DNA from: Euglena gracilis
Lineage: Eukaryota
Direction of reading: 5' to 3'
Length of the DNA: 64,000 nucleotides
NCBI GenBank assembly: GCA_039621445.1
Contig: CP154954.1
Span: 11,898,716-11,962,715, forward strand
The stretch's first letter is position 1; every line of letters starts with the position of its first letter. Shown here in pieces: positions 2,669 to 30,249 of the stretch. The position numbers and the translations under genes are program-made. The notes beneath the pieces were generated by a model. The model was not told the DNA's origin and did not search any database. It was given only the letters and a program-made list of their open reading frames with translations.

Positions 2669-3193
2669 GCGACCTCAACTCCTTCATTTATCATGCGTGC
2701 GTGGCTGTCAACCTCCCTTGGTGGTTTAAAAAAAGGTGATGGAGTTGAGGTCTTATTTGCAGGATTTGTCGATGGACAATTGCATCTTCACACCACGGGT
2801 TGAGAACTTGTTGATGTTCAACGGTGACATTGAAGGACAATTCCAGTCCGAACTCAACGTGTCACTCAACCCAAATGCGATTGTATTTCTACTCTTTTGT
2901 GCCTCGCAGCTCTGTTGAGGCCCATTTGACACCATATGCGTGTCATTTCAACACCATTGTCTTTCATGTTGTTACAAAGGTGAGGGAATCCTTTTTATCC
3001 CAGTTTGCGTTTTTTTGCGGGTTTTTTGCGGGTTTTTTTTCGTCGCGTTTTTTGAGGTGCCCTGTTGCGTCCCCCCCCCCCTGCTGGATCGGACCCAGCC
3101 AGCGCAAAAGAGCATGTTTGTTCAATCGACTGCAGTCATTTGAATGTGTTGGGATGGCTCCCGGCAAATGTGGAATCCTAAGTTTTGGTAATT

Positions 3194-3300
3194 GTAGCCT
3201 CCGAGGAGCCTCCGCGGTGGTTGGTTACCTTAGCCTCCGAGGAGGCTCCGCGGAGCCTGGTTACCTTGGAGCCTCCGAGGAGGCTCCTCGGAGGTAACCA
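3194..3300. repeat. Short palindromic-unit repeat/MITE (GCCTCCGAGGAGGCTCCGCGGAGCCTGGTTACCTT units)
   Basis: inverted ends CCTCCGAGGAGCC..GGCTCCTCGGAGG; same units recur at 4357-4742. Confidence 0.7.
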
Positions 3301-4098
3301 CTGTTGTACACAAGCCATGTCTGGTACAGCACCGCTTTTACCGTTTACCCGTTTACTGTATACGCTATGTCCACCAAACTTGTTGAAGATCAAAAGTCCA
3401 TTTGCAACAAAAACGCCATGTCCGCCTTATTTTGCTTCTACCGTTTACCCGTTTGCTATTTACGCCATGTCCGCCAAACTTTGTCCACACAAAGGGATGT
3501 TGTTATTGGGAAGCGGGGGGTGGGGGGTGGGGAGGTCCGGGGGGGGGGAGGGGGGCGCGGGGCAGGGTGCCGCAGGCCCCCTCCCCCCCCCCCGCCCCCC
3601 TCCCCCCCGGACACAGCCAAATGGACACCACTTTGAGTTTCACATGAAACTTTTTGCAACATCACATCCATGCTGACGTGCAGTTTGCCTACCACCCTCA
3701 CCCCTCCCCCACGTGACTGTTTGTTCGCCTGAGGATTAAAAGTTGCGGCGAATCCCAGCGGGATCACAATCTCAGGCACAATTCTGGCGTCTGGATAATG
3801 CAGGTAAAGTCCTGGCTGAATAAATTCATTTTCTGTTTTTGTTTATGTTCTATGTTGCCTCCCAAAGTCTGTTAATTTTTGTTACGCCTGTGAGTGTGTA
3901 AATTAGTCCATGCGTTAGTCCGTGAATTATTCTTCCCCAGGGACTTTGAGTGATAACATACAGTTTAAAACGAAACCGAAAATGGCTTTATTCAGCCAGA
4001 ATTTCACCAAAATTAACCAGAGGCCAGAATTGTATGTAAAATTGTCATCCCGCTGGGAACATACAACTGAACGGGATTTTATTTTTTTGGTTTTTTTC

Positions 4099-4307
4099 TG
4101 TGTTATAAAGAGAAACATTATTCAATGTCAAACACGGCAACTGCACCCAGTGGCAGCTTCCGAACCTGTCAGAACGTGAAACTTTTTTGCATCCTCTGTG
4201 CAAATGGGCAGAAAATGGACAGGTTCTGACAGGTTCGGAAGAGCATGATCTGCCACTGAGTGCAGTCGCCATGTTTGACATTGAATAATGTTTCTCTTTA
4301 TAACACA
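4099..4307. repeat. Foldback element with ~80-bp inverted arms
   Basis: TGTGTTATAAAGAGAAACATTATTCAATGTCAAACA.. at 4099 mirrors ..TGTTTGACATTGAATAATGTTTCTCTTTATAACACA ending 4307. Confidence 0.85.
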
Positions 4308-4356
4308 AAAAAACAAATTCCCGTTCCCACCATGTTCACAACATGCCCTGGCAAAA

Positions 4357-4742
4357 CTGGTTACCTTAGCTGAGGAGGCTCCTCGGAGCCTGGTTACCTT
4401 GGAGCCTCCGCGGAGCCTGGTTACCTTAGCCTCCGCGGAGCCTGGTTACCTCCCCCCCCCCTGTCGTTGACACGGCGTGTCGTTGACACCCCCCCCCGTG
4501 TCAGCAACACTTGTCTGTAACACTACCTATTGAATCACAGTGACATTGGCATGGCGTGTCGTTGACACCCCCCCCCCCGTGTCAACGGCACTCTCCTGGA
4601 ACATTGGCGTGCCAACGACAAGGGGGGGGAGGTACCTTAGCCTCCGAGGAGGCTCCGCGAGCCTGGTTACCTTGAGCCTCCGCGGAGGCTGGTTACCTTG
4701 AGCCTCCGAGGAGGCTCCACGGAGGCTCCTCGGAGGCAACCA
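4357..4742. repeat. Second array of GGAGCCTGGTTACCTT palindromic units, interrupted by a MITE
   Basis: same units as 3194-3300. Confidence 0.7.
4449..4632. mobile_element. Tc1/mariner-type MITE, copy 2
   Basis: TA duplicated at 4447-4448 and 4633-4634; removal restores the host unit GGTTACCTTAGCC. Confidence 0.85.
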
Positions 4743-5399
4743 AAAAGTTAGGATTCCTCTTTTGCGGTAGACCCTGTGGGATGGTTTGTGCATTTTTTTT
4801 GCTCAGCCCAGTATTGATATGGTGTGGCCCGCCTATCTCATGCCTTGATTCACATGAGATCAAGGAGAATCTCAGTCCCTCCTTCATATTCCATAGATGC
4901 CCGCCAGGCTTCATTATTTCATTGCCAAAGTTGCACATTAGATGGGGTCATCATCATTGAGGATTTACAAATTACCCCCTCCCCCCCCCCACCCCACTCA
5001 ACCCAACGCCCAACCCTGAATACCGCCCCCCCCCCCCGACTGCCGATCACCCCTCCCCCCCGGTTGGGCAGGGATGGATGGCCTTCGGTATTGAGGTAGG
5101 TGGTAGAGGGGGGTCCCGACCACCCCCCCCCCCTAGGTGTTGGGAGGGGGGTCTGGACCCCCCCCTCCTGCCAAAAATAGCAGAAAATGAGCAGAAACCC
5201 CCCTTTTGCTGACTTTTTGGACATATTACCCATTTTTTGATGTGTTGGTGTTTTATCCCCCAAAAAAGTTCAAAAAATTCAAAAAATGAGCATTTTTGGA
5301 TTGATTTTCAAAGAAAAACCAGGGTTTTCACCGATTTCCGGCCCTTTGCCCGTCCATGAAATCGAAAATTTTCGGCCCCCCCCCCTCAGTTTCGAGGTA

Positions 5400-5606
5400 C
5401 CCCCCCCCCTAGTCGTATGACCACCCCTCATTCATGACCACCCCCCGGTCACAGGTTGCAGGTTGCGAAAAATTTAACACCACTTTACCTATGACCGCCA
5501 CCTCATTTATGACCACCCCCCGGTCACAGGTTGCAGGTTATGGGGGTGCTATGACCCCCCCCCGGTCACAAGTTGCAGGAACCCGGTCATACGACTAGGG
5601 GGGGGG
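5400..5606. mobile_element. MITE with TA TSD and internal ATGACC..CCGGTCACAGGTTGCAGG repeats
   Basis: TIR (C)nTAGTCGTATGACC / GGTCATACGACTA(G)n; TA at 5398-5399 and 5607-5608. Confidence 0.8.
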
Positions 5607-6844
5607 TAGGAGGGGGGTCCGCCCCCCCCCCCCGTGTGAGGAGGGGGAGTCCGACCCCCCCCCCCCCCCAAGGCCTCCCATCCAACCCTGCGGTTGGGGG
5701 TTGTAGTTCAGGGGGTGGTGCGACCCGAACCCGCCCCTCAGGGCAGAACGGGAATCAGTCAAACAGTGGTGGGTGGGGGGGGTCGACCCCCCTCCACCTC
5801 TTCCCATTTTTCAGGTGCGCCGAGCCCCCCCCCCCCCCCCCCGGGGGGGGGGTCCCCCGGGACCCCCCCCCCGGGAGGGGGTCCCCCGGAGGGGGGAGGG
5901 ATATACTTTTCGGCGCCGCAGGCGCCGAAAAATTCTATTTTTAGCACTTTTCGCGATTTTTCGCCACATTTTTTTTTGTGGGTCCCCCGGGACCCCCCCC
6001 GGGGGGGCCCCCCAGGGGGTGGGGGGACCCCTCCCCCCCCGGTCTTAAAAAAAAACCCCTGTTTGGGACCATGTTGGAGAACCCCAAACCCTTTTTTTTT
6101 AAAACAATTCCAAATTTTGAACACGTTTTGATTTTGAGAGGTTTTTGAGGCAAAAAAATTGTCAGAGAAAATGTCAGTAAAAGTTGACTGTGCCAAAATT
6201 TGGTCCATTTTTGTCCAACCAAATTTGGTCTATATGATGGTCTGCCTGCATTTTTTTCACTCCCCTCCTGAAAACCGCCAAGCCCCATATCCTGTGAAAA
6301 AAGTGGTTTTCTATCAAAAAAATTATGTATTGGGGTCATTTTTCAAAAAAAATTTCAAAGAATTTCCTCTGCCAAGACCCCAATTTTCCCAAAATTCAGC
6401 AGAGCCTGGATGCCATTGCAACCCAGGGGACATGGCCAAAAGCACCTGGGCACTCGACCGAGGCATTTCCTTTTGAGGCAGTGCCCAGGTTGAGCAGTTG
6501 AGGCCACCTGCCCAACTGCAGGCTCCAACCGCCCCCCCCCCCGTTCCATCGGCTGACCAAGTTGGGAGAATCCCTGAATGAGGCCTGACCAAAGAGTTGC
6601 AGTTATTTCATAACCATTGGTTGTGCCATCACTGTGGAATCAGCGAGAACAGCGTTGCCGAATGTCCGCCGCTGTTCACCCTCCAGCTTTGCAAAATTTT
6701 GCCATCGGCAGAAAAGTTTCAAGGTTCCGAACACATAATCACTCAGTCACTGGCCGATCCCCCCCCCTGGTGGCTGGCTTGTTTTTTTTTGCTTCTTACT
6801 GCTTTTTGCTGCCTGAGTTGGCGGATATTGACGTCCTTTCAAGG

Positions 6845-7800
6845 ATGAAGGCATATTTAACAATTTGTGGAGAGAGCTATTTTCTCAACGCGGGCAGCCT
6901 GGCGAAACTATTGGCAGAATCGTCCCCGGAATCCCTCGTCGCCGTCATCGCGGCCGGGCAAAACTGGCTGGGAGGCGGATGGCACACGAGCTAACACAGG
7001 TGGCGATGGTCTCCAGCCAATTCGGAGACTACGGGAATTCGTTCTTTCACTCCGTGGTATTAGCAGGAAGTGTGGAAGTACCACGTGGCGTTCAACTTGG
7101 CTGAAGAGAAGAGTTCGACGACAGACAAGGAGATGACGAAGAGAGCAGAGCGGTCGGCGACGCAGAAGGACCGGGAAAACGAGGAAGACAGCGACGAGGC
7201 GGACGAACGGTTCCCCTGGCAGGAGGAGCTGGCGCCACTGGCGCCAGAGCTGGCAGCGTGCCTTCGGTACGCCGAAAAAAGGAGATCGCCTACCGTGTAT
7301 CAGGGATAAAATTAAGAGCGGAAGAAAATTATCATGGTTCAGATGGAAAAGGGACTTGGGGTAAGCGGCCGAAGGCATGGCTGAAAAAGATGTTGGGTAG
7401 TGGCATGCCTGTATGGAAGTGTGGAGGCAGGTTATCAAGTATTGGCACAACAACTGTTTTTTGATTTAGCAGAGCTGGAGCGGACGGTGCTGAAGGAGAG
7501 AAAGAAGTGCAGTATTACAGTGGCAATCCCAAGTACAAACAACGGGCTGTTGTCCAAAGAAGATTTCGCAGTTTACAAAGCCCAATGGGCTCTGAATCAA
7601 GCAGGCTTAGAACCAGCCTTCTCCAGACATTCTATGTCTCACTTTTCCATTCCCACAGGGAACAAAGGATTTAAGTTCAAGTTCGGGCAAAGGCAAAGGC
7701 TATGCCAGCCAATTCAAGTCTGGGAGAGGAAAGGGCTATGGCAGCCAGTGAGACTAGGGTGGTCCAAAGGGTCTTAATCATCTCTGGAATCCTCTCTCTG
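6845..7800 (+). pseudogene. Probable gag-like ORF1 remnant of a DIRS1-like retrotransposon
   Basis: fragmented helical ORFs (6617-6994, 7070-7309, 7400-7777) directly upstream of a DIRS-type RT; assigned by position only. Confidence 0.45.
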
Positions 7801-7946
7801 CCCACCCTTTTCCTCAGGAAAGGCAAGGGGACGGCCTGAAGCATAAAAAAGAAGCATCAAGAGGGGGTGAAACCAACAAAGTCAAGCACAGAAGGAGTCA
7901 GCGCTTACAGGCCTCAGGTGCTCATGATGGGCCAGCCAGAACCAAG

Positions 7947-8930
7947 ATGGGGTGGGGAGAGACCCCCGAGCTGAGCTCCAAGGAGGAGGTAATCCCCCTG
8001 CTGACCCCTGCCCTGAGGCCATCACCAGTCTCTCAAGGGCTCCTGGAACCAGGGACCTGGCTCACACCAACCTGCCCCCCAGAGGAATGGGAGAAAGGCA
8101 TCCTTCAAGGGTTGGATTTCAGAGAAAGGGCATGGCTGGGGGTGCCATCGTTTCAGAGACTGAGAAAATGTCTGCCATGGTGGCAGAAAAATGCAAGCCA
8201 GTGGGTAGTATCACCAATTCAAAATGGTGTGCAGCCAGACCACCCTCTACCCCAGTTTCTGTCAAAAAGACAGCAGCAAAAGTCAGAGCAGGAAATTAGC
8301 CTGGCCTCAAAAATCCTGAGGGAGTACCAAGAAAAAGGGGCAACCAAAAATTGGAAATGGCCACAGACACTTCCCACCTAGTACCCTGGATTGTGTTGAG
8401 CAAACCAGAAGGGGAGGGGGTCAAGCATCGACTTGTCACAGATTGTCGAGATCTAAATCAATTTTGTTTTCCAGAAAAGTTCACTTTGGAAAACATGTCC
8501 ACCATTTTTCCCTCTCTAAAAAAAAGAGGACTGGGCAGTCAAAATAGACCTGAAAGATGCCTACTTTCATCTGGGTCTGGAAAACGAGTTTTTTTTCAAA
8601 AAATTTGTCAGAATTCAGGTGGGACCAGACCTGTGGGAGTTTCAGGGGGCCTGTTTTGGCCTAAGCACCCTACCAAAATTGTTCATGTCCCTAATGAAAG
8701 TCCTGCTAAAAACTGTCGCGATCAAAGGGATTGCAGGTGTTCGTCTATTTGGACGACATCATTCTGTTTTGTTCAACAGAAAATTAGGTGAAAAAGCATT
8801 TGTTGACAATGCTGAACACATTAGGGGAGGCTGGGTTCAAAGTCAGCGAGAAAAAGTCTGTGTTTACTCCCTGCCAAAGGCTGCCACATTTGGGATTCAT
8901 CATCGATCGGGAAAAAGGTGCCTTTTTCCA
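7947..8930 (+). pseudogene. DIRS1/Ngaro-type reverse transcriptase, frameshifted and 3'-truncated
   Basis: RLRKCLPWWQKNASQWVV..IQNG, HRLVTDCRDLNQF, KIDLKDAYFH, GACFGLSTLPKLF, VYLDD, EKKSVFTPCQRLPHLGFIID across three frames. Confidence 0.8.
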
Positions 8931-9412
8931 AATGAAGCAAAACGCCCCCACCTGCCCGGTCCCGTTCCAATTCCCCAAAGCCCAGACCACCATCTCCGGA
9001 AAAGGAAAGGCAGCCTTCGGGTGCCCCACAACCCCAGACTCCAGCCCCCTACAATCAGGGACAGAGTCAAAATCTGGGCCCAAACTGGGCAGGCTGGACC
9101 ACTGTGGATTACAGCAAGGGGAAAGGAAAAGGCAAGGGACAGGGTTCACATCCTGACCAAGGCAAGGGAAAATGGTCTGGGAAGGGGAGCGGGAAGGGAA
9201 ATACAGGAAAAGGACAACCGTTCTGGCAGTGAACACAGAACTCCGGGACAGCCGTACAGCCCAGATACGAGCCACCTCCAGATGAAGCACGGTGTTACAA
9301 CTGTGAACAGCCGGGACATTTCAAACGAGAGTGTCCACAGCCACCGCGGTGGACACAGAAAACGGCAGCACCACAGACTGGACAGCAGGTTGCTGCCCAG
9401 GGGCAGAAGTGA
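8930..9412 (+). pseudogene. gag: Element E gag C-terminus: GKG-rich tract and zinc knuckle
   Basis: GKGKGKGQG..; CYNCEQPGHFKREC (CX2CX4HX4C) at 9293-9334. Confidence 0.8.
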
Positions 9413-9668
9413 AGCAGCTGCGGTAAGGAGGGAGGGGACGAGAGGGGCGTCTCCCTGATTTAACAAACCGAACAGAGGGACAGAAAGGAGCCATTACCGC
9501 AGCAGAAACAGAGAATGGAGGGAGGTTAGGGAGCCAAGGGTTCAGCCCAGAAAGCACAAACCAGACAAAGACAAAACACAAAGACTCAGGTGCCACCGGA
9601 GGAGGCTTGCTGCAGGTTTGGGCGGGCAGCCTCCCGTTGGATCACCAACCAGTACTAAAAATATCTCA

Positions 9669-10030
9669 CATTTCGGTTTGCAACCACAGGTGGACGTCTT
9701 CGCCACAGAACAGGACAAGCGGTTCGCGCGTTGGTGGTGACCAGGCAGCCCACACGGCACAGATGCCTAACAATAAAATTGGCAGGGCAGCCTCCTGTGG
9801 ATCAACCCCCCGTTCGACAAAATCCCAGAGGTGATCAAAAAAATTCAAACAAACCAGGCCCGCGCGGTTTTGGTGGTGTTTCAGTGGAAGCACCGAGTTT
9901 GGTACCCACATGCCAAAAAACTGGCTATCATGTCCATGACTTCCCCCTCAAAAACCAAAATTTTTGGCATGGTCGACAAGGGTTGCAGGAAAACACAGTG
10001 GCCGGTGGAGGTGCTGCTGGTGTTTGGGCA
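9669..10030 (+). pseudogene. Element E DIRS/Dam-like N6-adenine (amino) DNA methyltransferase domain with in-frame stops
   Basis: VDVFATEQDKRF..DA..W...LWINPPF (NPPF 9804-9815) ..VIKKI....ARAVLVV.QW....WY. Confidence 0.8.
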
Positions 10031-10227
10031 CACTGAACGCTGTGATTACCTGACGGGCTTCCAGCAGCACATGACCCTCCCACAGCCAACGTTCAAGGTC
10101 AACTTCGGGACAGTGCAACGTTTTCCACATTTGGAGACAGGGGAGGGGGTGATGAGCACCAGCCACTGGGAAAAACATACCTGCCCGGGAAAAACGTTCC
10201 GTCCGATCAGCAGAACAGAAACTGAAA

Positions 10228-10820
10228 ATGCTGGTCCTTTTCTGTGGTACCAAGTCGGTGGGCCAAGCATACAAAAAGATGGGGTGTCAGGAGGTTGCAG
10301 TGGACCTGGACCCCAAGTGGCAGGCAGATTTTCAGGTGGATGTCTTGACGTGGGACTACAAGAAAGTTCTGAAACCTGGGGAATTCCACACGGTGGTCTG
10401 TGGGGTTCCCTGCACGGAATTCAGCCTGGCACTCACAACCAGACCAAGACAACTGGGGAAAGGGGACGCATTGGCCAAAAAGGCGCTGGAGATCGTGAAG
10501 TTTCTGCGACCGCAGAAATGGTGGCCTGAAAATCCCAGACATGGGTACCTCAGACACAGGGAGTACATGTAACCGTATCAATTTGTGGATGTGGAGTATT
10601 GTCAGTACTCCGACTGGGGGTACAAAAGCCCAACACGAATCTGGGGCAGCAAAAATATCCTGCAAGTGCAGGGAAAGCTGTGTGACAGGAGAACATGTCC
10701 CAACCTGATCCCAGGGCAGAAGGGTCACCGGGTGAAAATCTCCAACACGACCAGTATTTCCAGAAACAAAAAGTATCGAATTCCAGAAAAACTGATCCAA
10801 GATTTTGCTGGTTGGAAAGA
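10228..10820 (+). pseudogene. Element E C5-cytosine DNA methyltransferase domain (one in-frame stop)
   Basis: motif I LFCGTKS, II VDLD, IV GVPCTEFS, VI ENP, VIII region YCQYSDWGYKSPTRIW; clearly homologous to the A/B domain. Confidence 0.85.
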
Positions 10821-10959
10821 TGAACAAAACACACTGGAGCCTGCGGCACAGCAAAAATCCACGCAGGCACAATGAAAACGTTCACCTGCCAAAACGGTTG
10901 CTTGGGCCAGCATCGGAACGACTGTTGAGACAGGTGGTGAAACGGGGGAAGTCCAAGCA

Positions 10960-13900
10960 AACTTCTGATTGCCATTCGTGCGGTCTGCCCGCATGGTGAA
11001 ACGGTGGACCTGAAGGTCCTCGTGGACACAGGGACCCAAACCAACCTGATCAGAAAAGACCTTCTACCCCCAGGAGCCTTCACGGTGTCAAACCACCCCT
11101 TGACCCTCGTCACTGCCGACGGCACACAGATTGGGGGAGGGTTGCATGAAACGACACTGACACTGGAATTCACAGCCAAGATTTTCAACCAGGACAAAAC
11201 AAGGGAATGGACAACCACAGGGACCTTCCACGACGCGGAAATCCAGGTGGATGCCACTTTGGGGTATCCCTGGATGGAGCAACACCACTTAGGGGTTTTT
11301 CCACACCTACATTCGCTGGCCCTGATAGGGGAACCATTGCTCCTGCTGACAAATTGGAAAGGAGTACGAGGACGGGAACAGGTTGACAGAAAATTTTTGA
11401 AGAAAATAAACAAAGTACGGGCCATGAATCTGCAGGTGCCTGCAGAAGCAGGTGATACGGAAGAATTTTTGTTTGAGGAGGAAACGGTTTTGGAAAGTCT
11501 GGCCCAGCAAATGGAAACTGAAAAATGCAAAGTCGCCCAAGGGATCCAAGGAGTGATAGCCGTGCCCGAAGGGCAGGCTGTGGAGGGAGACAGGGTGACA
11601 GATTTGGTCGCAAAGCTGCGTAAATACTACGAGGGAGTGGTGTTGAGGGGCAATATATTCCCAAACCCCCCTGAACGTGGTCCACTTGATTTCGGGAAAA
11701 CAGAACTCAAGCCTGGGACTGTGGCAAAAAAACAAAGACCCATCCACGTGACCGGAGAACGCCGACAGGCACTCCTGGACATGGTCGACGAGTGGGTCAG
11801 TGATGAAAAAGTGGAGGATGGGAGAAGTGACTGGTCCAGCCCCATGTTCGTGGTGGCCAAGAAAGAGGGAAAATGGAGGGGGGTGGTGGATTTCAGGGCC
11901 CTGAACGTGGCCACGGTGACAGAAGCACACCCTCTCCCCCAGATCGAAACATCCTGGCCCAACAGTGTCAACGGGCAATGTACAGTGTGTTGGACCTAAA
12001 GGATGCTTTCCATCAGGTATCCACGAGAAAGAATTCCCGACCCTACACCTGCTGTAGTACACCGAGAGGAACAAAGCAGTGAAAGTAGTAGTGATGGGGA
12101 TGAAAAACGGAGTGCCAATTTGCCAGAGGGTCATCGAATAAACCCTGGCGGAGGTCGCAGACATTGCAAACCCCTACGTTGATGACATCATCGTAGGCAC
12201 AGTTTGGCAGGGAACGCAAGAGGCAACAATCCTCCAACACGGCAAGGACATCCACAGAGTCATGGAGGCACTCAAGAAACAGCTGCTCGTAGCCGACGTC
12301 AAAAGATGTAAGTTTTTTTGTGCATGAAGCGGAATTCTGCGGACACACCATGGGGGGAGGACAGCGGAGACCAGCCCAGGAAAACTGATGGCCCTGGAAA
12401 AGGGGGAAGAACCAAAAACCATCACAGCGCTCCGCACATTCCTGGGATTCACCAACTAGTACTCCTCCTACATCCCAGGATACGCGGAGTTGGCAGCAGA
12501 TCTGGTGGAAAAACTCAAGGTGAGGAAGGGACTGGGGAAAAAAGGGAGCCAGATGCCTGTTTTTTTCGCGGAGAAGGAACGCAAGGCGTTCCAGGCCATC
12601 AAGAACAAACTGTTGGGTACAGTGCGGCTAAAAATTACGGAAGACAGAAATTTTGGCAAAACACCCAAATTTTGCCATATTTTTTTTCCTCGTAATTTTC
12701 TCACTCCGTCGGTTTCCGACGCCCTCTTCCAGTCCACTTCTGGTTTGTGCTCAAAAGAACACAATACTCATCCCAATTGAATGCCAGTTTCTTGAATGGT
12801 ATATGCTCGCCCAGCTCCTTGAAAAACGGGCGACCAGCATCAAGCACCTAGGGAAAATCACAGCAAAAATCGCTCTGCATTAAAAACCACTGACACCTGA
12901 TCAGTGGGCACAATTCTATCAGAATTTGCAGCGAACGGCCACCATTCTGCTTTCACCAGCGAATATTTTGCCCATGCCTGACCGATCTTGAACGTTCCCC
13001 CATTTTTTTTTGGCAAGCGTTGCTGGGCGGGTACGTGCGACAACACCTTGAGCGATTGCAGCCACTGAGGGACAGAAAAATACGTTGAACACGCAACCAG
13101 GAGAAAACTGTCGCTCACCTGTGCCGGAGGTCAATCCTTCGTGGGGACCAGATTTTGCCAAAATTAATTTTCCCAAAATAAAAATTTTGCCAAAATTTTT
13201 TCTCGTAATTATTTTTACCGTAATTTTTGTCTTCCGTAATTTTTAGCCACATTGTAGCCTCAAACTGCAAACGGTCAACCCCGACAAGCCATTCATCCTC
13301 CGAGGGGATGCCAGTGGCAAGGCTGTGGGGGCTCCCTTGGAGCAGTTTGTGGAGGATGGATCGGGGAAACCGGCCACCACAACGGCACAGACAAAAAAAG
13401 CAGCCCCAGTGGCATTTTGTTCACGAAAATTGGCACCGGGACAGGTCAGGACTTGGACACCACGGGACAAGGAAACGTACGCTGTGATCCTGGCCCTTCA
13501 GAAATGGGCCTCATGGATCGGTATGCAACCGGTGCTGGCCCTGACCGATCACAAAGCAATCGAGTCCTGGGCCACAGAAAACCTGGACACAGCCACAGGG
13601 TTGTCAGGACGTAGGGCCACATGGCACGAACTCCTTTCAAAATTTGATATCACGGTGGACTACGTACCTGGGAAGGACAACGTGCTGGCTGACGCCTTGA
13701 GCAGGTGGGAGCATATACCGCCTCACAGGCGTTTGCCGATTTTAGTGTGCACGGCAGTGAGGAGGATGACCGCCTCATACAAGAAATAATGGCACAGGAA
13801 AGGAAGGAGGAAAGGGGCTGCTCAGTGGTTTCAATGAAGGAAATTGCTACGGGCACAGAAAATTTTTGGAGACCCACCCCTCGTTGTGGCCGTCACAACA

Positions 13901-15730
13901 AGGGGAGGGGCCAAGACTGGATAGGATTCGGCCACAACGAGCAAACTCACACCAGGGAAGGAGACTCCCCCCAAAAAAATTGAAAAACTTCAAACCCCAA
14001 GGACAGGGACACCGAAGGCACACAAGAAAAGGGAACCCCAGAAAAGAAATGGCCAAGAGGATAGCCACAGAGGAAGACCCCCCTAGGCGAAGAACCTTGG
14101 AAGAGGATCCTGTGGACCCTCCAAAAACAGCAAGTAGGACGGAATCGAGGACGCGCAGCGTCCCTCATCTTCGACGAGCCTGCCTGTGGGACCTCCATCA
14201 AGGGGAGTGCACGCCCGGAGCTTCCACCGACAGGGTCGCAGTCGGTGATGGACGAGGACTGGAGCAGCGGGTACAGCGGGTGCCCCAAGTGGGGACCTGT
14301 GCTAAGGGGTTGGAGGATGCGGGGTTCGAAGAATGGCCTGAGGGCTCCCGATTTGAAAACGGAAGGCTCTTCAAACACGGACTCTTTTGTGTACCAAGGG
14401 AGGTCACGGGGATGGTCATCAGGGAACACCACAAAGCGGCAGGACACCCAGGGGCTGAACGGCTGTGGGATCAGATGGGTCGGTGGTTTCTTTTCGCTGA
14501 CTACCAACACGCAAAAAAACTCACCAGCAAAATGATGGGGATGTATGAAACGTGTCAGCTCACTGAACCGAAGCATCAACCCTTCAAGTGTGCGATACAA
14601 CCAACACCGGTCCCGCCTCACATGATGGACAGCGTGGCGGTCGAACTCTTTGAACTACTGGAAATTACTTTCGAAGGGAAACGGTACGACACTTTGGCGC
14701 CTTGTGTGGACCGATTGAGTGGGTGGATGGTTGCTACCCCCCATCATATCGTAAGGATCTCACAGCAGAAAAGGTAGCAAAGGAAATGTTTCGACAGTGG
14801 GATCTGTTCGGAATCCCCTCGGTGGTGAGTTTCGACAGGGGTCCACAGTTCACAGCAGCCTGGTGGAAAACTCTGTGCGCGGCACACGGTGTAAGGGTTG
14901 CCTATGGACAGGCTTACAACCATCAGGCGAACGGAAGGGCAGAGGTAGCCGGGCAGCAGGTGATACGGAAGCTTGCAAAGCTGGCTGCAGAAAACGGTGT
15001 CCCTTGGGTGGAGCTCCTCCCACGGGCTATGAGGGCCATTCACGACGTGCCTGCGGAGGTTGGACTGTCCCCCTACGAGATTGTTTTTGGGCGACACCGA
15101 CCGTTGTGCGGGATTCCGCACAAAAAAAAACAGCGGGAAGCCGAATGTGCGACATAATTACTCAAACGAATGAAGGAACAAGACAGGTGGGGTGCCCAAA
15201 CCCTCAATGAAAAACTGAAGGCTCGGAAGGCGGCTGTGAACCAGAAACGACGTGAACCTGCAGCACTGAAAATCGGTTCCAAGGATTGGTACCAACCTTA
15301 ACGACATCCTGGAACCGATAGGTTGGAACCCAGGTGGAAAGGGCCGGCGGTGGTTTTGGAAAGAGTGGGAGACCACTCCTATGTGGTGGAGCTTCAGCCG
15401 GGCAAGCGACAACCGGCCCACCGTTCCCAACTGAAACCACACGTGGAGGACCATAACTCAACCACCCCCGTGCCCTTGTATTTTGGGTGTGGAAAAGCTC
15501 AAGAACTGGAGGTTGGACCTGATGAGTGGGAGGTGGAAAGGATACTCAACCACCGACACGAAAAAAGGAAGACGGAACTTTTGGTGCCATGGAAAGGAAA
15601 GGATTAGGGCCAGAAGACGACTAATGGGAACCAGTGGTGAATTTTTTCTTTAGAATCAATAAGGCCGTGGTTGCCTATTGTGTGGACAAGGGGGTGGATT
15701 TGGATGCAAAGGAATTGTTGGAACTGATGA
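10960..15730 (+). pseudogene. pol: Element E pol: aspartic protease, RT, RNase H, integrase, chromodomain (many frameshifts and stops)
   Basis: VLVDTGT; WRGVVDFRALN; LDLKDAFHQ; YVDD; DAS..ETYAV..TDHK; H..GH; FDRGPQF..NGRAE; WKGP; WEVERILNHR. Confidence 0.9.
12620..13254. mobile_element. Non-autonomous Tc1/mariner-like DNA transposon inserted in E pol
   Basis: ~33-bp TIR CAGTGCGGCTAAAAATTACGGAAGACAGAAATT, TA TSD (12618-12619, 13255-13256); excision restores KNKLLGSLKLQTVNPDKPFILRGDAS. Confidence 0.92.
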
Positions 15731-17569
15731 AGTGACAAGGTTCCTTGTCTTCTTCATCCCCACGTTCCCTCACAGATGGCCCGACATCGACGACAACAAC
15801 GCCAACCCCAACCCCAACAACCCCAACATCACCACCCCTACTTTCGACCTCAACCCCTTTGACGCCAAACCCCCTCCCCCATTCCAGCCACCCCCAACCC
15901 CCGACTTCATCATCTCCACCATTCTACCCCCACCCCTGAGCAAGGCCATCGAGGCCGAGCTCCCCCCCGCCAGCTGCTGGAGAACGCCCACACCCACCCC
16001 TACCCAGCATACAAGCTGCCCCCCACCCCCAGCCATACGCATACCCACCAAATACCACCCCAGCCCACCCCAACAACGACACCACCCACCCGGAGGGAGC
16101 GCGGGCGCTCCATCTGCAGCAGCCCCCGCAGCCCCCTGCTCCCTCAGCCACCCCCTCTACCTCAGGACCACGAGCGTCGCCGACCTCCGCCTCCTCCGAC
16201 CACGACGACTCACCCCTGCGACGCCCCACCCCCTGGTTCCTCCGGGACCTTTGGGGCTAGCTCGCCCCTGGAGGCTCTCCCCCCCCCAAATATTGGTTCG
16301 GGCTGTCCCCCCCCCCCGCAGCCCCCTTTACAAGTTCAGTGCCCTCAGACCGTTTCTTCCACCGTAGTCGGAAGCAAAGCCCTCCCATAATAATGAACCT
16401 GGAGCGCCCCCACCCTTTCACGCCAAACCTGGGGTGCTCCCCCACACCGAACCTTGAGTGCCCACCCCAGTGAACCAGGGTACTCCTTGCAGAACCTGGG
16501 TTCCCCCCCACGGGAAGTCCAAGGTCGGGGCAGAGATCTTTTATTAAAAAAAAAGGAGCGGCGCTTGGCGCCTGCTGTTCCCCCCCCCCGACAAGGGACC
16601 TGGGATGGGGGTCCAGCCACCGTCCCCCTCAAAAAAAAAACAAAAAATAAAAACAAAAAAAACTCAAAAAGGAAAAGAAGGGGTGCCCAGCCAACTGCCC
16701 CCCACAAAACAGGGACCGTGGGCAACGCTTGGCGCCTGCCCCGCCCCCGTTGATGAAGGGCCAAGAGGTGGGGGGCAGCCCCGGACCTGCTAAAAAAAAA
16801 ACAACCAGAACCTGGGTTGGCCACACCTGGTCTGACCCAAAGCGTAGAGGGCTCAAATGAAACCCAGCCCTCCGCTTAACTTGTGCATTTTTCAACTCCA
16901 CAGACGCTAGACGAAAGAGAGGGGGTGGAACAGAAGTTTGGGTGAATGAACCTGCTGCCCCCCCACCACGCCTGACAGAGCTGGGCTTACCAGGATACAC
17001 CCCTGGGAGCATTCCAAAAAAAAAATTGAAAATGACTTTTGGCTGAGGTGGGCAGCGCTTGTCAGTTTTTCCCCCTACGGGACCTGGACCTAAGGGGGGG
17101 GGGTGCGCCACCAAGGCTGAATAAAAAACACACACAAAAGAAACCCCCCATGGGGGGAAAAAGCAACCTGACCTCCCCTGAGAAAAAAAACTGGCCATGC
17201 CCCAGCCTTGTTTTAACCGAAAGACCCTGACTCAGCCTTTGCTTGATTTTTGTAAAAAAAATAGCCCCTGGCCGTCGACTGACCGCTTGGAAGGCAGAGG
17301 CGGAACACCCCGAACAGGAGCTACCCCCCTTTCAAAAAAAAGCGGGGTTGTGGTCGGCTCCTGGCGCCAGCCCCCCCCTACCCCCACACGACAACGGACC
17401 TTGGGGGGACAGCCACCTAAAAAAAACAACAACCTCAACCAGGCCAGCCCCCCCCCCCCAGAGGAGAGACCAACCTGGGACCAAAAACAGGAACTGGCCA
17501 GCCCCCTTTCGACAAACGCACTCTGCACCCCTTCCTAAGTGAGTCGAGAAGAGTTGTAAACAATTCCTT

Positions 17570-17690
17570 GGGAAGGGGAGTGTGAGTCAGGGGTGCTGAG
17601 TGCCCTTGTAAGTTAACTAACCTCAGGTGCTAAACTTAAAAGCTAACCCAGGCGCCCACATCCCTCAGCCCCCAGGGTTTTTATGACCCC
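17570..17690 (+). repeat. Element E PPT (17570-17580) and start of the 3' LTR (TG at 17581; end not determined)
   Basis: GGGAAGGGGAG followed by TGTGAGTCAGGGGTGCTGAGTGCCC, a 25-mer also starting the LTR at 60843. Confidence 0.75.
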
Positions 17691-18422
17691 CAGTGGGCTT
17701 CGGCCCTGGGAAGGGGGGGGCGGAAGAGTCAGCCCTATGGATTTTGACGCCAGAGTGCCACGGCCCTGGGGGGGGGGCAGATTTTTCGGAAAAATATCCG
17801 CACAGATTTTTCGGGACAAAATCGGAAACCGATTAAAAGAATGCAAACTTTCAGTCGATGGTTCCATCAAAAGACGACTGTGTCGACCCCATAACATTCT
17901 GAGCCAGAGCATTGCAAATGTAATTGTAAAGCAAAAACAATAAGCAACAACCTGAGGGCGGTACCTTGCTGGTGTTCCGTCCCTCGGTACGCAAGGCACA
18001 ACCGGCCCTGCCCTTTCTGCTGGGAGCGTCGAAACTCACTCCCCAGGCAACAAACCTAATCGAAACACAAACTGCCTGTCTGGGGTTCAGCAAACCGCTT
18101 TCCCTCCCTCCCAAGTCCGAGGCCGAAGCTCACCAGGAAGTAAAAAAATGTCCAGGGGTCAGCAAACCGCTGTGTCCCCTCCCCCTCACTGGGTCAAAAA
18201 TGTGTACGGGGTTCGGCAAACCGCTGTCACCCCCCTCCCATGTCCGAGGCCGAACCGCCCCCCAGGGAATGAAAAAACTGTCCAAGGTTGCGGGACAACC
18301 GTGGTGCCTATGACGTTCTAGCAAGTCTGTTGAACTAGGAACGCCAAAACACATTGCTGTGAAACGGCAAATTTGAAACTATGAGAAAATCCTGATCCCT
18401 TGTCCAGGGCCGAAGCCCACTG
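17691..18422. mobile_element. MITE-like element with CAGTGGGCTTCGGCCCTGG TIRs
   Basis: 19-bp inverted match 17691-17709 / 18404-18422; further TIR-like copies near 18472 and 18538; no TSD seen. Confidence 0.55.
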
Positions 18423-19494
18423 GAACAGAAAAAGATTGCCCGGGGGCCAAAACTGGCCCCCCCACACCAGCCCAGGGCCGAAGCACACTGAGGTGTGGAA
18501 AAAAACTCTCCGGGGGGATGATAACCGTCCCGCCACCCAGGGCCGAAGCTCTCTGGAATCACTTCACCACGAGTGTCATTTACTGAATATGCAATCACAC
18601 CACTTCAAAAAAACCAAAGTGGAAATCCACAATGTGCGGCAGCCAACGAGTCAACAGCAACAACAGCACACAACAAACAACATTATTGCGGAGGTGCGTC
18701 CGTGTGTCCATAAACAAAAAATTGTAATTTGGCTTTCCGCAGTTTCATTTTGTCCGTGTTGGACATTTTGGTCAAAGGACTCCGCCAAAAAGGGGTGGCG
18801 GCTGCACTACCATGTGAAATTTTTCTGCCGGTCGAGACACAGGCAGAATTTCCAGAACTGAAATCATTAGAACACAGCACATTGTAATTACGAGATCCTT
18901 CCCGCACAATTGGAAAATCCGCACAACCACCCAGGTCATCAATTGTTAAACCTGAAAAACCACCCTTGTCATCAACGAATGACGGGGCTGAATCGGCCCA
19001 TCCGCCGGCCGAAGCACAGGCTGGGGCCTTGCCATGTGAACAGGATGTTGTCCTCCCAGCGGCCATGCACTTCTGCAGCTGTGCCACCGGCCGAAGCACA
19101 GGTGACCGCAGTACCTAGTACATCCAGCGGGTCCGAATCCACCCCGCCAGCACCAGGTTCAAAATGTCCAATGACGGGGTGGCCAACCCCGGATTCAACT
19201 GCATCACTTGCCCTGGACCCAGAGGAACTGGGGACTGCAGCTACCCCAGCTGTCATTGCCCCACCGGCCGCAGCACGGGTGGGGGTAGGTTGCAATCACA
19301 TCTTATCTTCCACGTCACTTCCTAAAATGTAGTGTAAACCCGAAAATTCATCTTGTTCTTCTTCCGATGACTTACACACCTCTGTCTGAGTGTGTGCCGG
19401 CGATAATGTCTTATGTTCTTCATGGTTCTTCCTTTGTTGATCTTCCATCTGGACTTCAGGCATGTGACCAATGACACAACAATTGAGTTGATCG

Positions 19495-20183
19495 TGAGTG
19501 GGGAACACCGGGGCCGCCAACCCTGATTCCCTACGACCCCCGCGCCCCTGGGTGCTTCTTGAACTTTTCTTTATCCATGTTCCCACCCGTATGTGTTTCA
19601 TTTCGGCTTTTCGGCTTTTTTGCCATTTTTCTCATTTTTGGCGGGCAAAACGGCTTTTTCGCCGTTTTCCCAAAGGCGAAACGGCTTTTTTGCCGTTTTG
19701 CCATCGGCGAAACGGCTTTTTTGCCGGTTTGCTGACGGCTAACCGGCTTTTTTTGCCGTTTTGCCGAAAAGCCGTTTTGAAATGAAAGGGCTTCAGATGG
19801 GTGGGAACACAAATCATCATTTTTACTCATAATCCTCCTGGCGCTGCCATATACCCACTCTTCAGTGTCTACTACCAAATTCAAACCAAGCAATGAAGAT
19901 AAGACATCCAAGACTTAGGCAATCAACTCAAGCCAGTTGTGAGCTACAGAACAGAGGGTAAGGTCAGATAAAAATAGAGCTGAAAACTAGGATTCCAAAT
20001 TCTTAATAGGATTCACCCTCAGAAGAAGTTTGCTTCAGCAGCGCCCACTCAAGAGTGGGGATATGGCAGCGCCAGGAGGAATATCAGGAAAATTGATGAA
20101 TTGGATAAAGAAAAGTTCAAGAACCACCCAGGGGCGCCGGGGTCGCAGGGAATCAGGGTTTGCGCCCCAGTGTTCCCCACTCA
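19495..20183. mobile_element. Element with ~80-bp TIRs enclosing a smaller palindromic-repeat MITE (19596-19787)
   Basis: TGAGTGGGGAACAC..GAACTTTTCTTTATCCA vs TGGATAAAGAAAAGTTC..GTGTTCCCCACTCA; inner AAACGGCTTTTTTGCCGTTT units. Confidence 0.75.
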
Positions 20184-20850
20184 AGAGGCAAAGCACAATG
20201 GAAAGACTTCAGATGTTTCCTCTGCAACCAAGTTCAGTTGTTCTGAGGGTTTTTCCCTCTGACGAATCAAACCTACAAACGTTCAAACAATGAAACAAAG
20301 CAGTACCACCTGTGGGAAAAGGAGAGAAAAGTGCTGACGTGACCAGAGGGGGAGCTCCCAGAAGGGTCTGCCACGACCTTACCAGCTGCGTTTGCACAGT
20401 GGTGCGATCGCATAGAACCCACTCTGCAAATATCCTAGACAGCTGGGACGTGCCTGGTACACACAATGACATTGACATAGTCAAGTTTTGGGTGTTGACA
20501 AGCATAAGCTGCACGTCGCACCTACCCACGCACCTTGGACAGCTCCCAAAGTACTTTCCTCCATGCATTCCATCTTTGGTTCAATGATTTCTTTTATTTA
20601 GGAAATGTATATCCAATTGAAAAAAGAAATGTGCAAGGGCAAAACAAATGGTGAGGAAACGCCGGCGGGAGGAGCGGCAGCTCCTCATGGCAGTGTGTTG
20701 GGTTTCGTGGAAACAGGGGTCTGGGTTGGGGAAAAGGGCTTTAAATGGGTGGTTGGGCTCAGGTAAAAGGGGATGTGATGCCGGATAGGCAAATCGATCC
20801 TCCGCATCCTAGGGGAAACCGAGGCACCGAAGGTTCCTCCGCCTTAGGAC

Positions 20851-20890
20851 TTAACATGGTGAGCAGAGGTTCATATTCAGAAAATCCCAG
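20851..20890 (+). promoter_or_regulatory. Element D remnant: LTR end (..TAACA at 20856) plus PBS TGGTGAGCAGAGG (20857-20869)
   Basis: same AACA|TGGTnAGCAGAGG junction as A/B; body not found downstream. Confidence 0.55.
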
Positions 20891-21331
20891 TGTACGTCCC
20901 ACCCTCACTTTTCTACTTACGATTTCCTCCTGAAAAGTCCGTGGGGGGAGTAACAACAAAAATTTGCTTCCCTTTTCCCCTTTTGAATGCAAAGCACAAG
21001 AGCAGAAGAATTGGTGGGACCGCAGTCCCTTATATGAAAGTGACTTTTGCTCTTTCGAGCTTTGTAAAAGAAAGAAATAAAACTTGTATTCAAATGGGAC
21101 TTCGCCCTCAGAATTCTAAAAGAGAATTGAAAAGCACCAAACCCAATAACCTTGAATTAGGAACCAGTTGCTTTCGCTAAGCTTTTGCTAGTTCTGAGAT
21201 TCTCTCTTTGTCTTATGGTTTAACCATGCCACTGTGTACAGCCCGGCCGTAGCCAGCTTGTAGGCCGTAGTCCATTGTATCTGGTACACAGTGCCATGGC
21301 AGAATGGCTGCCTGGTACACATCCCCCTCCC
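20891..21331 (-). repeat. Candidate 3' LTR of element C (21321->20891) with PPT (21322-21331)
   Basis: minus strand GGGAGGGGGA then TGTGTAC.., ending ..GTACA; no second copy in the window, so the left end is tentative. Confidence 0.5.
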
Positions 21332-21704
21332 AGGGCTCTCCCCGATTTCCCTTCTGGACCAGGCCAGTCGGGATGCCAGGCACAGTCCCAGGTTCAGGGA
21401 GACAGTACCAGGATACCATGGTCTGGTTCCCAATTACGGTTACCGTGTTTGGAGCACAAAGCGCAAAAGAATTCTGGCGCGCATGCTGTGCTTCGTGCGT
21501 CTTCTTACTTGACACCGTAGTGTCTTTGTGGTCTTGAGTCTTCGCGATCAACGTGTTATCCACCAAACTTAAGACGATTCCGCCATTGTGTCTTGAAACG
21601 GTGTTGAACGCGATGATGAAGTGCGTATTCACGCTCGAGACTTCGCTCATTATGTTGGACTACGCCCATTTCAGCCGTAGCTGATTATACGAGGCAGAAA
21701 ACCC

Positions 21705-29370: not shown

Positions 29371-29640
29371 GACAGCCGGGGTGGACCGTTGGGGGCGGGA
29401 GCCTCCCCGGGCTCGCATACCCAGCCCCACACAAAGACATACACAAATCCCAGGTGGCAAGAAAAATCTCGTGTGAGTGAAAACACGATGAAAAATCTGC
29501 CATCCCAGGAGACTTCTGTGCAAGGTGTGTCCAATGTGTCGGGTGCGTGCGTGCGTGACGTGCAAATCTGTGACTCGGCCCAAATCTGTAAAGAATCAGA
29601 TCCCATAAGGGATCGTGCACAGCCTTCCGTAAAGAAAAGA

Positions 29641-30225: not shown

Positions 30226-30249
30226 GTGTTGGAACGAAAAAGCGGATAT

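Follow-up and report, generated by a model that had tools for sequence, protein, structure and literature searches.

Element E, a sequence in the 64,000-nucleotide stretch of Euglena gracilis DNA analysed here (the window), is very probably a Ty3/gypsy chromovirus-like LTR retrotransposon with a decayed accessory-enzyme cassette at 9593-10830, and the placement of a Dam-type domain before a C5 domain is very probably heritable in its lineage. Along its polyprotein, a gag with a zinc knuckle is followed by a Dam-type N6-adenine methylase, a C5-cytosine methylase, a protease, a reverse transcriptase (RT), an RNase H, an integrase, and a putative chromodomain. The Dam-C5 order of E mirrors that of family A, which occurs in the same window and reads C5, Dam, protease. 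This reversed order is a trait of the family and not a local accident.

Structure and decay of element E

The features of E, of a fragment next to it, and of the comparison elements A and C are listed below, with the supporting evidence in parentheses.

8070-8925, plus strand: DIRS-like RT fragment, 3'-truncated; a neighbour, not part of E (tblastn of P0168, P0169, P0170, and P0171)
8936-9412, plus strand: probable C-terminal (nucleocapsid-like) gag remnant of E, CCHC knuckle at 9293-9334 (Pfam zf-CCHC, E=3.4e-08, above cut-off)
9593-10109, plus strand: Dam/DIRS-type N6-adenine methylase-like domain of E, NPPF motif (tblastn, Dam tree)
10110-10206, plus strand: linker between the two methylase domains of E, with a change from frame 0 to frame 1 near its 3' end (overlap of P0087 HSPs)
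10207-10830, plus strand: compact C5-cytosine DNA methylase domain of E, motifs FCGTKS, GVPCTEFS, ENP, and YCQYSDWGYKSPTRIWGS (tblastn, phmmer, profile search)
10941-11441, plus strand: retropepsin of E, DTG at 11025-11033 (tblastn: A2 protease, match 10947-11720, E=1.5e-20; P0154 aa 600-793, 40% identity, E=2.1e-32)
11664-12612, plus strand: RT of E, three frames, three in-frame stops (tblastn: A2 pol aa 1-313; P0158)
12615-13259, no strand assigned: inserted element, about 645 bp long and bounded by terminal inverted repeats of 47 nt, splitting E between RT and RNase H (inverted repeat and break in the A2 pol alignment)
13247-13839, plus strand: RNase H of E (Pfam RT_RNaseH, E=1.8e-18; tblastn to A2 pol, 62.6% identity)
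14203-15154, plus strand: integrase of E, zinc-binding domain and core, three frames (below-cut-off Pfam matches to Integrase_H2C2, E=2.6e-4, and rve, E=8.6e-6)
15302-15619, plus strand: SH3-like domain and start of the putative chromodomain of E (Pfam SH3_Tf2-1, E=1.1e-4; Chromo, E=9.2e-5)
29620-30645, plus strand: cassette of element A1, C5 at 29620-30222 and Dam at 30223-30645 with NPPW (Pfam DNA_methylase, E=1.5e-4; Dam, E=2.5e-10)
40421-40780, minus strand: Dam-like domain of element C, HPPL replacing NPPx, upstream of RT (Pfam Dam, E=1.2e-3, below cut-off)
50630-51655, minus strand: cassette of element A2, C5 at 51655-51056 and Dam at 51052-50630 with SPPW (Pfam DNA_methylase, E=1.4e-4; Dam, E=5e-9)

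The pol of E is of the Ty3/gypsy type, and over 11733-15619 tblastn aligned it colinearly with A2 pol. The integrase region matched aa 584-1052 of A2 pol with E=4.7e-96; this match ended inside the chromodomain of A, and the Chromo match in E, which covered the first 25 profile positions only, scored 22.7 bits against a cut-off of 25.1. The arms of the inserted element (12615-12661 and 13213-13259) were 85% complementary. A motif scan located only two zinc knuckles in the window, at 9293-9334 and in element C, and it was from its position and strand that the remnant at 8936-9412 was provisionally attributed to the gag of E.

The copy of E is dead, with at least 10 in-frame stops, eight frame changes, one inserted element, and no LTRs. 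LTRs of E were found neither by self-blastn (E<=1e-10) nor by a word-7 search of 3000-9700 against 15500-21500, and the window contained neither a 5' gag of E nor a second copy of it. The copy appears to be 5'-truncated; thus, the absence of LTRs says little about the E family. The Rfam scan of the whole window detected no family.

Family A is represented in the window by two LTR-flanked copies, A1 and A2. The LTRs of A1 (24715-25562 and 35894-36741) were 98.6% identical and those of A2 were 99.5% identical. In family A, Pfam placed DNA_methylase at aa 93-201, Dam at aa 307-359, and the protease at aa 479-535, and both copies carried YCQFSDWGYQKPTRIWGS. The Dam-like domain of element C was 90% identical to its counterpart in P0158, and tblastn of the A2 methylase-protease ORF against the window yielded no C5 match in element C. 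The matches between E and A were far beyond chance.

The methylase domains and their order among relatives

The A2 methylase-protease ORF had three tblastn matches in E, which fell in the order N6, C5, protease and thereby define the order of E. The Dam domain of A2 (aa 313-426) matched 9669-10022 with 28.6% identity over 119 aa (E=3.3e-10), and its C5 domain (aa 90-283) matched 10219-10800 with 47.7% identity over 195 aa (E=4.6e-54). These alignments directly established both points that the initial annotation had made here, namely that the C5 methylase of E is homologous to that of A and that an NPPF domain lies upstream of it, in the reverse of the order of A; both sequence strings quoted there were recovered, and VEYCQYSDWGYKSPTRIWGS was located in the frame-1 ORF 10573-10875 of E and LLWINPPFDKIPEVIKKIQTNQARAVLVVFQWKHRVWYPH in the frame-0 ORF beginning at 9777. 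The N6 domain begins about 75 nt before 9669, where it had first been placed: its N-terminal helix is at 9593-9655 in frame 2, and its core is in frame 0.

In Pfam, neither methylase piece of E reached its curated cut-off (Dam, E=0.052; DNA_methylase, E=0.04); therefore, the two domains are identified through their homology to A and to intact relatives in the database. By tblastn, the Dam domain of E was matched by P0154 (41%, E=1.4e-33), P0153 (42%, E=1.7e-31), and P0004 (35%, E=7.6e-25), and a word-indexed search with the N6 domain among longer proteins gave no match. With the C5 domain, phmmer retrieved 2116 library proteins at E<=1e-3, the best being P0003 (60% identity, E=8.6e-80), and a profile of relatives matched DNMT1 in the PDB (E=1.3e-4). 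As a methylase gene, the copy has retained NPPF, PC, and ENP, and three stops in the Dam domain (TGA 9738, TAA 9768, and TAA 9774), one in the C5 domain (TAA 10570-10572), and frame changes on either side of C5 leave it with no open reading frame. FCGTKS, with K for the second G of motif I, was considered as a mark of decay and rejected, as GTKS also occurs in P0087 and several intact relatives.

The relatives examined (n=164) comprised the best 150 of the 2116 C5-search matches and 14 new proteins from 17 Dam-profile matches. Both methylase domains were present in 20 of the 164. Eight of these dual proteins had Dam directly before C5, six had C5 before Dam (in two of the six the protease was upstream), five had Dam, protease, C5, and one had C5, protease, Dam. 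The claim of a second family with reversed order was thus supported by relatives elsewhere, eight of the 20 dual proteins carrying the N6 domain directly ahead of C5; the refuting outcome named in the initial annotation, relatives lacking the N6 domain at this position, did not arise. Three intact ORFs, P0004 (891 aa), P0153 (584 aa), and P0154 (840 aa), each encode Dam and C5 within a single frame and are colinear with E over both methylases; in P0004 and P0154 the colinearity runs on into the protease, and the three ORFs jointly cover 9593-11441 of E. P0087, the closest relative among those examined, also has Dam before C5, is 66% identical to E in C5, and spans the Dam-C5 junction; its HSPs lie in frame 0 at 9912-10271 and in frame 1 at 10192-10506, overlapping at 10192-10271.

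The Pfam cut-off for Dam was exceeded in two proteins with Dam before C5, P0017 (32.0 bits) and P0080 (33.8 bits), and that for DNA_methylase in the relative P0010 (31.4 bits). P0104 is annotated as a hypothetical protein (partial) from Genlisea aurea. Catalytic motifs were retained in intact ORFs of every order, and DTGA was present in all eight protease segments examined, across all orders. Colinearity with genomic DNA in the window was checked for the Dam-C5-protease order only, and some of the orders in relatives could be nested insertions read through by the gene caller.

The folds of both domains were directly established on models of the relatives. In the P0153 model, most 10-residue blocks of both domains had a pLDDT >90, and the best PDB matches were DNMT3A/3B, DNMT1, and M.HaeIII (E about 1e-7). 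The model of the P0004 Dam domain had a mean pLDDT of 91.3 and best matched phage DNA N6-adenine methylases (E=2.9e-9 to 1e-6, TM 0.65-0.75), and the search of the Dam profile against PDB sequences returned only a spurious lectin match. The best solved fold match of the Dam module was the RNA cap adenosine methylase PCIF1/CAPAM (E=5.3e-4). With PCIF1 as its nearest solved fold, the Dam module might conceivably act on element RNA or RNA:DNA hybrids rather than on duplex DNA. According to the text of a recent preprint, DAM domains of DIRS, DAM-LTR, and adintovirus origin caused no rise in 6mA in dam-deficient E. coli (10.64898/2026.05.21.726589).

Origin of the dual cassette

Separate domain phylogenies, proposed in the initial annotation, were informative for the two methylases: both the Dam and the C5 trees placed E with relatives having Dam before C5, whereas the RT-RNase H tree (12 rows) was a polytomy with an unresolved ingroup. 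On the careful Dam tree (27 rows), E was sister to P0154 (98/92), a Dam-C5-protease protein, inside a clade of proteins with Dam before C5 (93/83) that belongs to the Dam group of LTR elements; an 86/73 branch separated E from the four DIRS rows. On the careful C5 tree (54 rows), A1 and A2 formed a separate clade (99/97), and E was located among rows with Dam before C5. The N6 domain of E had been described as closer to the classical DIRS pattern, which these positions do not bear out: its identity to four DIRS methylase domains was 20-29%, against 17-25% for A1, and it belongs to the LTR-element clade.

Two histories of the cassette have to be weighed. There is close to an even chance that a single ancestral LTR element carried both methylases and that the orders were later rearranged by module shuffling within the gag-pol of one lineage. 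Consistent with this, forcing the eight rows with Dam before C5 and the 12 rows of other orders apart on the C5 tree gave a topology as likely as the free tree (0.77 lnL units higher), and a single origin of Dam before C5 was thus not rejected (p-AU 0.52). The incongruence between the Dam and C5 trees, including that of P0080, was also non-significant in AU tests (p-AU 0.098, 0.135, and 0.099). In addition, the pol of E was most similar to that of A (52% over 433 columns), and the Dam modules of both orders shared the same N-terminal helix and the same boundaries. However, on the free trees, C5-only rows are mixed among the dual elements (for example, P0078, with 626 aa upstream lacking a Dam match), and rows with Dam but no C5 are interspersed among them as well; moreover, non-rejection is not support, the Dam domain offers few positions, and the resolution of the trees is low.

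Independent assembly, in which Dam-carrying and C5-carrying LTR elements recombined more than once and yielded dual cassettes in different orders, is a tentative alternative that we consider somewhat short of even. One C5 clade (97/95) contained proteins of the protease-C5-Dam and Dam-protease-C5 orders, the Dam domains of which occupied three places on the Dam tree, and on the free trees P0080 combined an A-like Dam (93/90) with an E-like C5. At least five orders of Dam, C5, and protease occur among the relatives (Dam-C5-protease, C5-Dam-protease, protease-C5-Dam, C5-protease-Dam, and Dam-protease-C5), and the authors of the preprint argue that DAM was transferred repeatedly and that EpiLTRs were assembled separately in two hosts (10.64898/2026.05.21.726589). 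Nevertheless, the AU tests of those very incongruences were non-significant (p=0.098 and 0.135), the tested groups had been defined with the trees already in view, and the labels were derived from partial proteins. Because all AU tests were non-significant, the rearrangement events cannot be counted; the earlier proposal that the cassette was shuffled or assembled independently at least twice thus keeps both of its branches, neither being singled out by the tests. Selection on both domains gained modest support, as the dN/dS between A1 and A2 was 0.087 for C5 and 0.237 for Dam (12 substitutions each) and the motifs are kept in every order.

The DIRS-like fragment upstream of E raises a third reading. 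The span 8070-8925 was the only one matched by DIRS-like pol proteins (34-65% identity per aligned piece, best E=1.1e-63); its Pfam RVT_1 match was weak (E=0.0096). On 21 ORFs between 6614 and 15607, Pfam detected no phage-integrase family of the sort that a tyrosine recombinase ORF would show, a weak test because these ORFs are decayed. The methylase domains of the two element classes are homologous in type: the LTR-element Dam profile matched four DIRS pol proteins, P0169 and P0171-P0173, in their C-terminal domain with E=5.7e-15 to 2.2e-13. As Goodwin and Poulter reportedly described in 2001 and 2004, DIRS elements carry their methylase domain after RT-RNase H and rely on a tyrosine recombinase. 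A locus-specific accident, in which the N6 domain is a DIRS tail abutting a 5'-truncated A-like element that starts at C5, is nonetheless extremely improbable: it would accord with that domain order, with the same-strand RT fragment about 670 nt upstream of the N6 domain, and with the missing LTRs and 5' gag of E, but the DIRS homology ends at 8925, neither the RNase H nor the methylase portion of P0169 and P0171 has a match in the window at E<=1e-3, the CCHC knuckle lies between the fragment and the N6 domain, Dam, linker, and C5 are colinear with E in the three intact ORFs and P0087, and the Dam of E groups with the Dam of those relatives and not with DIRS. For annotation, the lesson is that a Dam-like domain beside a DIRS fragment need not be owned by DIRS.

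Known systems and possible mechanism

Dual-methylase chromoviral LTR elements have been termed "EpiLTRs" (Fernandez-Moreno et al., bioRxiv 2026, 10.64898/2026.05.21.726589). Since both of its methylases are located in an element with a chromovirus-like pol, E would be a dual-methylase LTR element of the EpiLTR kind, with a different module order. Like E, the Euglena gracilis EpiLTRs of the preprint are Ty3/gypsy-type LTR elements that combine a DAM and a C5 DNMT; they also encode a chromodomain, of which E shows a putative start (10.64898/2026.05.21.726589). The consulted preprint text gives neither their module order nor two orders in one genome, and its figures or supplements may show orders. 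The same text describes mixed DIRS and LTR DAM lineages in the Euglena gracilis genome, with possible nested insertions. The EpiLTRs of Cymbomonas tetramitiformis are also chromovirus-like LTR elements with DAM and DNMT, and their DNMT is reported to be monophyletic with that of the Euglena EpiLTRs; however, it is appended at the 3' end of pol, whereas both methylases of E are located between gag and protease. The preprint places the EpiLTR DNMT in a clade sister to DNMT4 and regards it as an acquisition separate from the DNMTs of SymbioDIRS-Dnmt3 and KnitGypsy-Dnmt3 (10.64898/2026.05.21.726589).

Other retrotransposons share single features with E. The Dam of E is homologous to the methylase domain type of DIRS retrotransposons; unlike in those elements, it precedes protease and RT in an element with an integrase and a putative chromodomain, and it branches apart from the DIRS rows. 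SymbioDIRS-Dnmt3 and KnitGypsy-Dnmt3 (de Mendoza et al., 2018, PMC5890265) are retrotransposons that, like E, have a C5 DNMT encoded within pol. They differ from E in that, as far as the consulted text describes them, their enzyme is of the Dnmt3 type, they have no Dam, and they belong to other hosts and other element classes. According to the same source, two SymbioDIRS-Dnmt3 structures of different domain order occur in one genome, a precedent for the shuffling of order (PMC5890265).

On the basis of what these two sources describe, rather than of the window itself, a mechanism may be outlined for active copies (PMC5890265; 10.64898/2026.05.21.726589). Both enzymes would be made within gag-pol, and their substrate would be either the DNA that the element itself has reverse-transcribed or the new insertion. 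The new copy might then carry two marks: 5mC, which is the default where the host genome is heavily CG-methylated, and 6mA, which marks permissive chromatin. Integration would be steered by the chromodomain. Because relatives show so many module orders, each methylase may well be a self-contained unit, probably after cleavage by the protease; the orders themselves probably arose when co-packaged RNAs of related elements recombined. It is conceivable, though on balance doubtful, that module shuffling is concentrated in a hot-spot from gag to RT, in which both methylases are under selection at any position, autonomous, and proteolytically released.

Retrotransposons with their own writers of 5mC and 6mA and a chromatin reader are a very recent discovery. 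Opposite orders side by side in one genome, together with the further orders in relatives, amount to a natural experiment: as both modules were retained despite repeated rearrangement, each of them appears to matter, and its function appears to be independent of its position in the polyprotein. P0004-like ORFs, P0154-like ORFs, and element A provide intact candidates for work on activity.

Order of the methylase domains in element E and its relatives

The window was eukaryotic and rich in retroelements. Pfam searches of its long ORFs revealed element A, which is of the chromovirus-like Ty3/gypsy type and occurs in two copies (A1 and A2); its ORF upstream of pol carried a C5 DNA_methylase domain (aa 93–201), an N6-adenine-methylase-type domain (Dam, PF05869; aa 307–359), and a protease (aa 479–535). 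This methylase-protease ORF was used as a tblastn query against the window. The positions of its matches placed the N6 domain upstream of C5 in E, a decayed gypsy-type LTR element, and thus confirmed the order claimed in the initial annotation; both sequence strings quoted there were also present in ORFs or translations of the E region. From pol onward, E was colinear with A to position 15619 (tblastn). Pfam matches on the pieces of E itself were weak (Dam, E-value 0.052; DNA_methylase, E-value 0.04).

Elements and domain matches in the window
9669–10022 (+), Dam match in E, 28.6% identity, E-value 3.3e-10
10219–10800 (+), C5 match in E, 47.7% identity, E-value 4.6e-54
10947–11720 (+), protease match in E, E-value 1.5e-20
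24715–36741 (+), A1; LTRs 24715–25562 and 35894–36741, 98.6% identical
37114–43153 (−), element C; Dam-like domain upstream of RT, no C5
44744–57063 (−), A2; LTRs 44744–45541 and 56266–57063, 99.5% identical

A phmmer search of 1.84 billion representatives with the C5 domain of E, its stop read as X, returned 2116 proteins at E-value ≤1e-3, including 119 at ≤1e-30. A Dam-domain profile search had 17 hits, which added 14 proteins. Domains in the best 150 of the 2116 C5 matches and in these 14 proteins (n = 164) were assigned with local HMMs covering Dam, C5, protease, RT, RNase H, integrase, and chromodomain; a Dam hit was obtained in 29 proteins, and both methylase domains were found in 20.

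Module orders, upstream to downstream, in the 20 proteins with both methylase domains (PR, protease)
Dam, C5: 8 proteins (P0004, P0010, P0012, P0017, P0080, P0087, P0153, P0154)
Dam, PR, C5: 5 proteins (P0100, P0104, P0160, P0161, P0164)
C5, Dam: 4 proteins (P0022, P0025, P0040, P0058)
PR, C5, Dam: 2 proteins (P0052, P0064)
C5, PR, Dam: 1 protein (P0015)

Three of the eight proteins with Dam before C5 (P0004, P0153, and P0154) were uninterrupted ORFs colinear with E, with identities to E of 35–42% in Dam and 52–54% in C5, and of 37–40% in the protease for P0004 and P0154; the match to E began at 9593 with P0153 and extended to 11441, within the protease, with P0154. The closest relative of E in the annotated set was P0087 (66% in C5), which extends from the C-terminal part of Dam across the linker into the N-terminal part of C5. 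Because these intact relatives and P0087 carry the same order as E, this order occurs beyond the present locus; Dam before C5 is a family trait. The motif DTGA was present in all eight protease segments inspected, with every order represented, including those of P0052, P0064, P0015, P0100, P0104, and P0164 (6/6) with other orders. In some relatives, C5 directly preceded the protease and no Dam hit was obtained, for example in P0078 (2513 aa, C5-PR-RT-RH-INT-chromo). P0104 (Dam-PR-C5) is recorded as a partial hypothetical protein under the name of the plant Genlisea aurea.

The E copy was strongly decayed, with three in-frame stops in the N6 domain (TGA 9738, TAA 9768, and TAA 9774), one in C5 (TAA 10570), and a total of 10 in-frame stops and at least eight frame changes over the HSPs at 9657–15619. 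Its RT and RNase H were split by an insert of ~645 bp (12615–13259), which resembles a short non-autonomous DNA transposon; the insert had 47-nt terminal inverted repeats (85% complementary), and no second copy was found in the window. No LTRs of E were found in the window. The window contained only two CCHC zinc knuckles; one of them, at 9293–9334 (Pfam E-value 3.4e-8), preceded the N6 domain by ~90 codons and was read as the end of the gag of E.

The N6 domain is not the tail of the DIRS-like piece upstream of E. A search with 8520–8900 returned seven proteins, four of which (P0168–P0171) matched 8070–8925 (+) with 34–65% identity per aligned piece, revealing a DIRS-like RT fragment. The RNase H and the methylase parts of P0169 and P0171 had no match in the window at E-value ≤1e-3; thus, the DIRS-like piece is 3'-truncated at ~8925. 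It adjoins E on the same strand, the junction with the gag remnant lying at ~8925–8936. The observed/expected CpG ratio of the fragment was very low (0.25); the values were 0.63 for E, 0.53–0.55 for A, 0.97 for C, and 0.65 for the whole window.

Phylogeny of the methylase domains

Careful trees were built for Dam (27 rows) and C5 (54 rows). On the Dam tree, four DIRS methylase domains lay on one side (86/73), E stood beside P0154 (98/92) within a clade of five rows with Dam before C5 (93/83), P0080 grouped with A1 and A2 (93/90), and P0158 grouped with C (100/100; 90% identical). On the C5 tree, A1 and A2 clustered with P0022, P0040, and P0034 (99/97), and E was placed at the other end, among rows with Dam before C5; P0010 and P0012 were placed elsewhere on weak branches. 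A quick 116-row tree recovered the same two clades (SH-aLRT 98 and 99). Of the separate domain phylogenies proposed earlier, those of Dam and C5 placed E with the Dam-before-C5 proteins; the RT–RNase H tree (12 rows) gave no resolution within the LTR elements. The suggestion that the N6 domain of E is closer to DIRS was marginal at best, since its identity to DIRS domains was 20–29% and that of A1 was 17–25%.

The initial annotation also proposed that the dual cassette had been shuffled or assembled independently at least twice. The free trees hint at re-assortment of the Dam and C5 modules: the members of one C5 clade (97/95) had Dam domains in three separate places on the Dam tree, and P0080 combined a Dam like that of A with a C5 like that of E. 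However, AU tests of these cases, on groups picked post hoc from trees already seen, were non-significant (p = 0.098, 0.135, and 0.099). Constraining all eight Dam-before-C5 rows together on the C5 tree incurred no cost (p-AU 0.52), and a single origin of this order is therefore possible.

Predicted folds and published elements

A profile of 22 C5 domains matched DNMT1 in the PDB (E-value 1.3e-4), aligned across the PC and ENV motifs. The AlphaFold model of P0153 (32-row alignment, mean pLDDT 71), in which most 10-residue blocks of both domains had pLDDT >90, matched DNMT3A/3B, DNMT1, M.HaeIII, and DIM2 at E-values of ~1e-7. For the Dam-domain model of P0004 (nine-row alignment, mean pLDDT 91.3, pTM 0.87), 25 predicted viral structures matched at E-value ≤1e-3, the best being phage DNA N6-adenine methylases (2.9e-9 to 1e-6); PCIF1-like giant-virus proteins ranked below them. 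Among solved structures, the best match was the cap adenosine methylase PCIF1/CAPAM (E-value 5.3e-4, TM 0.70), followed by KsgA/DIMT1/Erm-type adenine methylases. The likeness of this model to PCIF1/CAPAM, an RNA cap adenosine N6-methylase, is a lead rather than a result, by which the substrate might be RNA or a hybrid. NPPx was present in 21 of the 29 Dam segments and HPPL in one, seven being partial or motif-less; among the 114 C5 segments >150 aa, 84 had the strict PC-motif pattern and 98 had ENP. HPPL also replaced NPP[FYW] in the Dam-like domain of C (40421–40780, −). In P0158, near-identical to C (pieces 89–94%), no recognisable protease motif was found.

E belongs, as a decayed copy, to a kind of element that was described only recently. 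One work was found that reports DAM, DNMT, and chromodomain together in LTR elements, a preprint whose text gives the name EpiLTRs to elements of Euglena gracilis and Cymbomonas tetramitiformis and describes mixed DIRS/LTR clades of Euglena DAM, enrichment of DAM-LTRs in 6mA, and no 6mA gain upon expression of DAM domains in E. coli (10.64898/2026.05.21.726589). The text covered gives neither a module order for Euglena EpiLTRs nor order variants, and the order in E is not described there. A 2019 opinion paper lists C5 methylases for both Ty3/gypsy and DIRS elements and DAM for the latter, and no dual-methylase elements (PMC6338049). It is on published work that a function of the E-type methylases would be based. 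According to de Mendoza et al. (2018; PMC5890265), retrotransposon DNMTs are able to methylate CG de novo, and cDNA methylation was proposed for them. The same paper describes two domain orders in SymbioDIRS-Dnmt3 elements.

Divergence of the A copies and further ORFs

Between A1 and A2, the LTRs diverged by 11–18% (82–83% identical, 89% over the first 1.9 kb) and the interiors by 3.7% (96.3% identical over 9 kb). Much of the difference therefore probably predates insertion, and the copies are sub-lineages with different LTRs, or recombinants.

dN/dS by NG86, A1 versus A2 only, small counts
83 codons before C5: 1.09
C5: 0.087 (9 synonymous, 3 non-synonymous)
Dam: 0.237 (6 synonymous, 6 non-synonymous)
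Protease: 0.084
RT: 0.028
Integrase: 0.027

Small as the counts are, these values fit constraint on both methylase domains of A, stronger on C5. The Dam catalytic motif was NPPW in A1 (30223–30645, +) and SPPW in A2 (50630–51052, −), the copy with the younger-looking LTRs. Two further ORFs were observed in the window: one of 674 aa with no Pfam family (21708–23729, −), and one of at least 951 aa running past the window end, with only weak coiled-coil-type Pfam matches (61146–63998, +). In A2, the long first ORF encodes 1126 aa without a Pfam family and contains a tandem array of 78-bp period at 54732–55372 (−).
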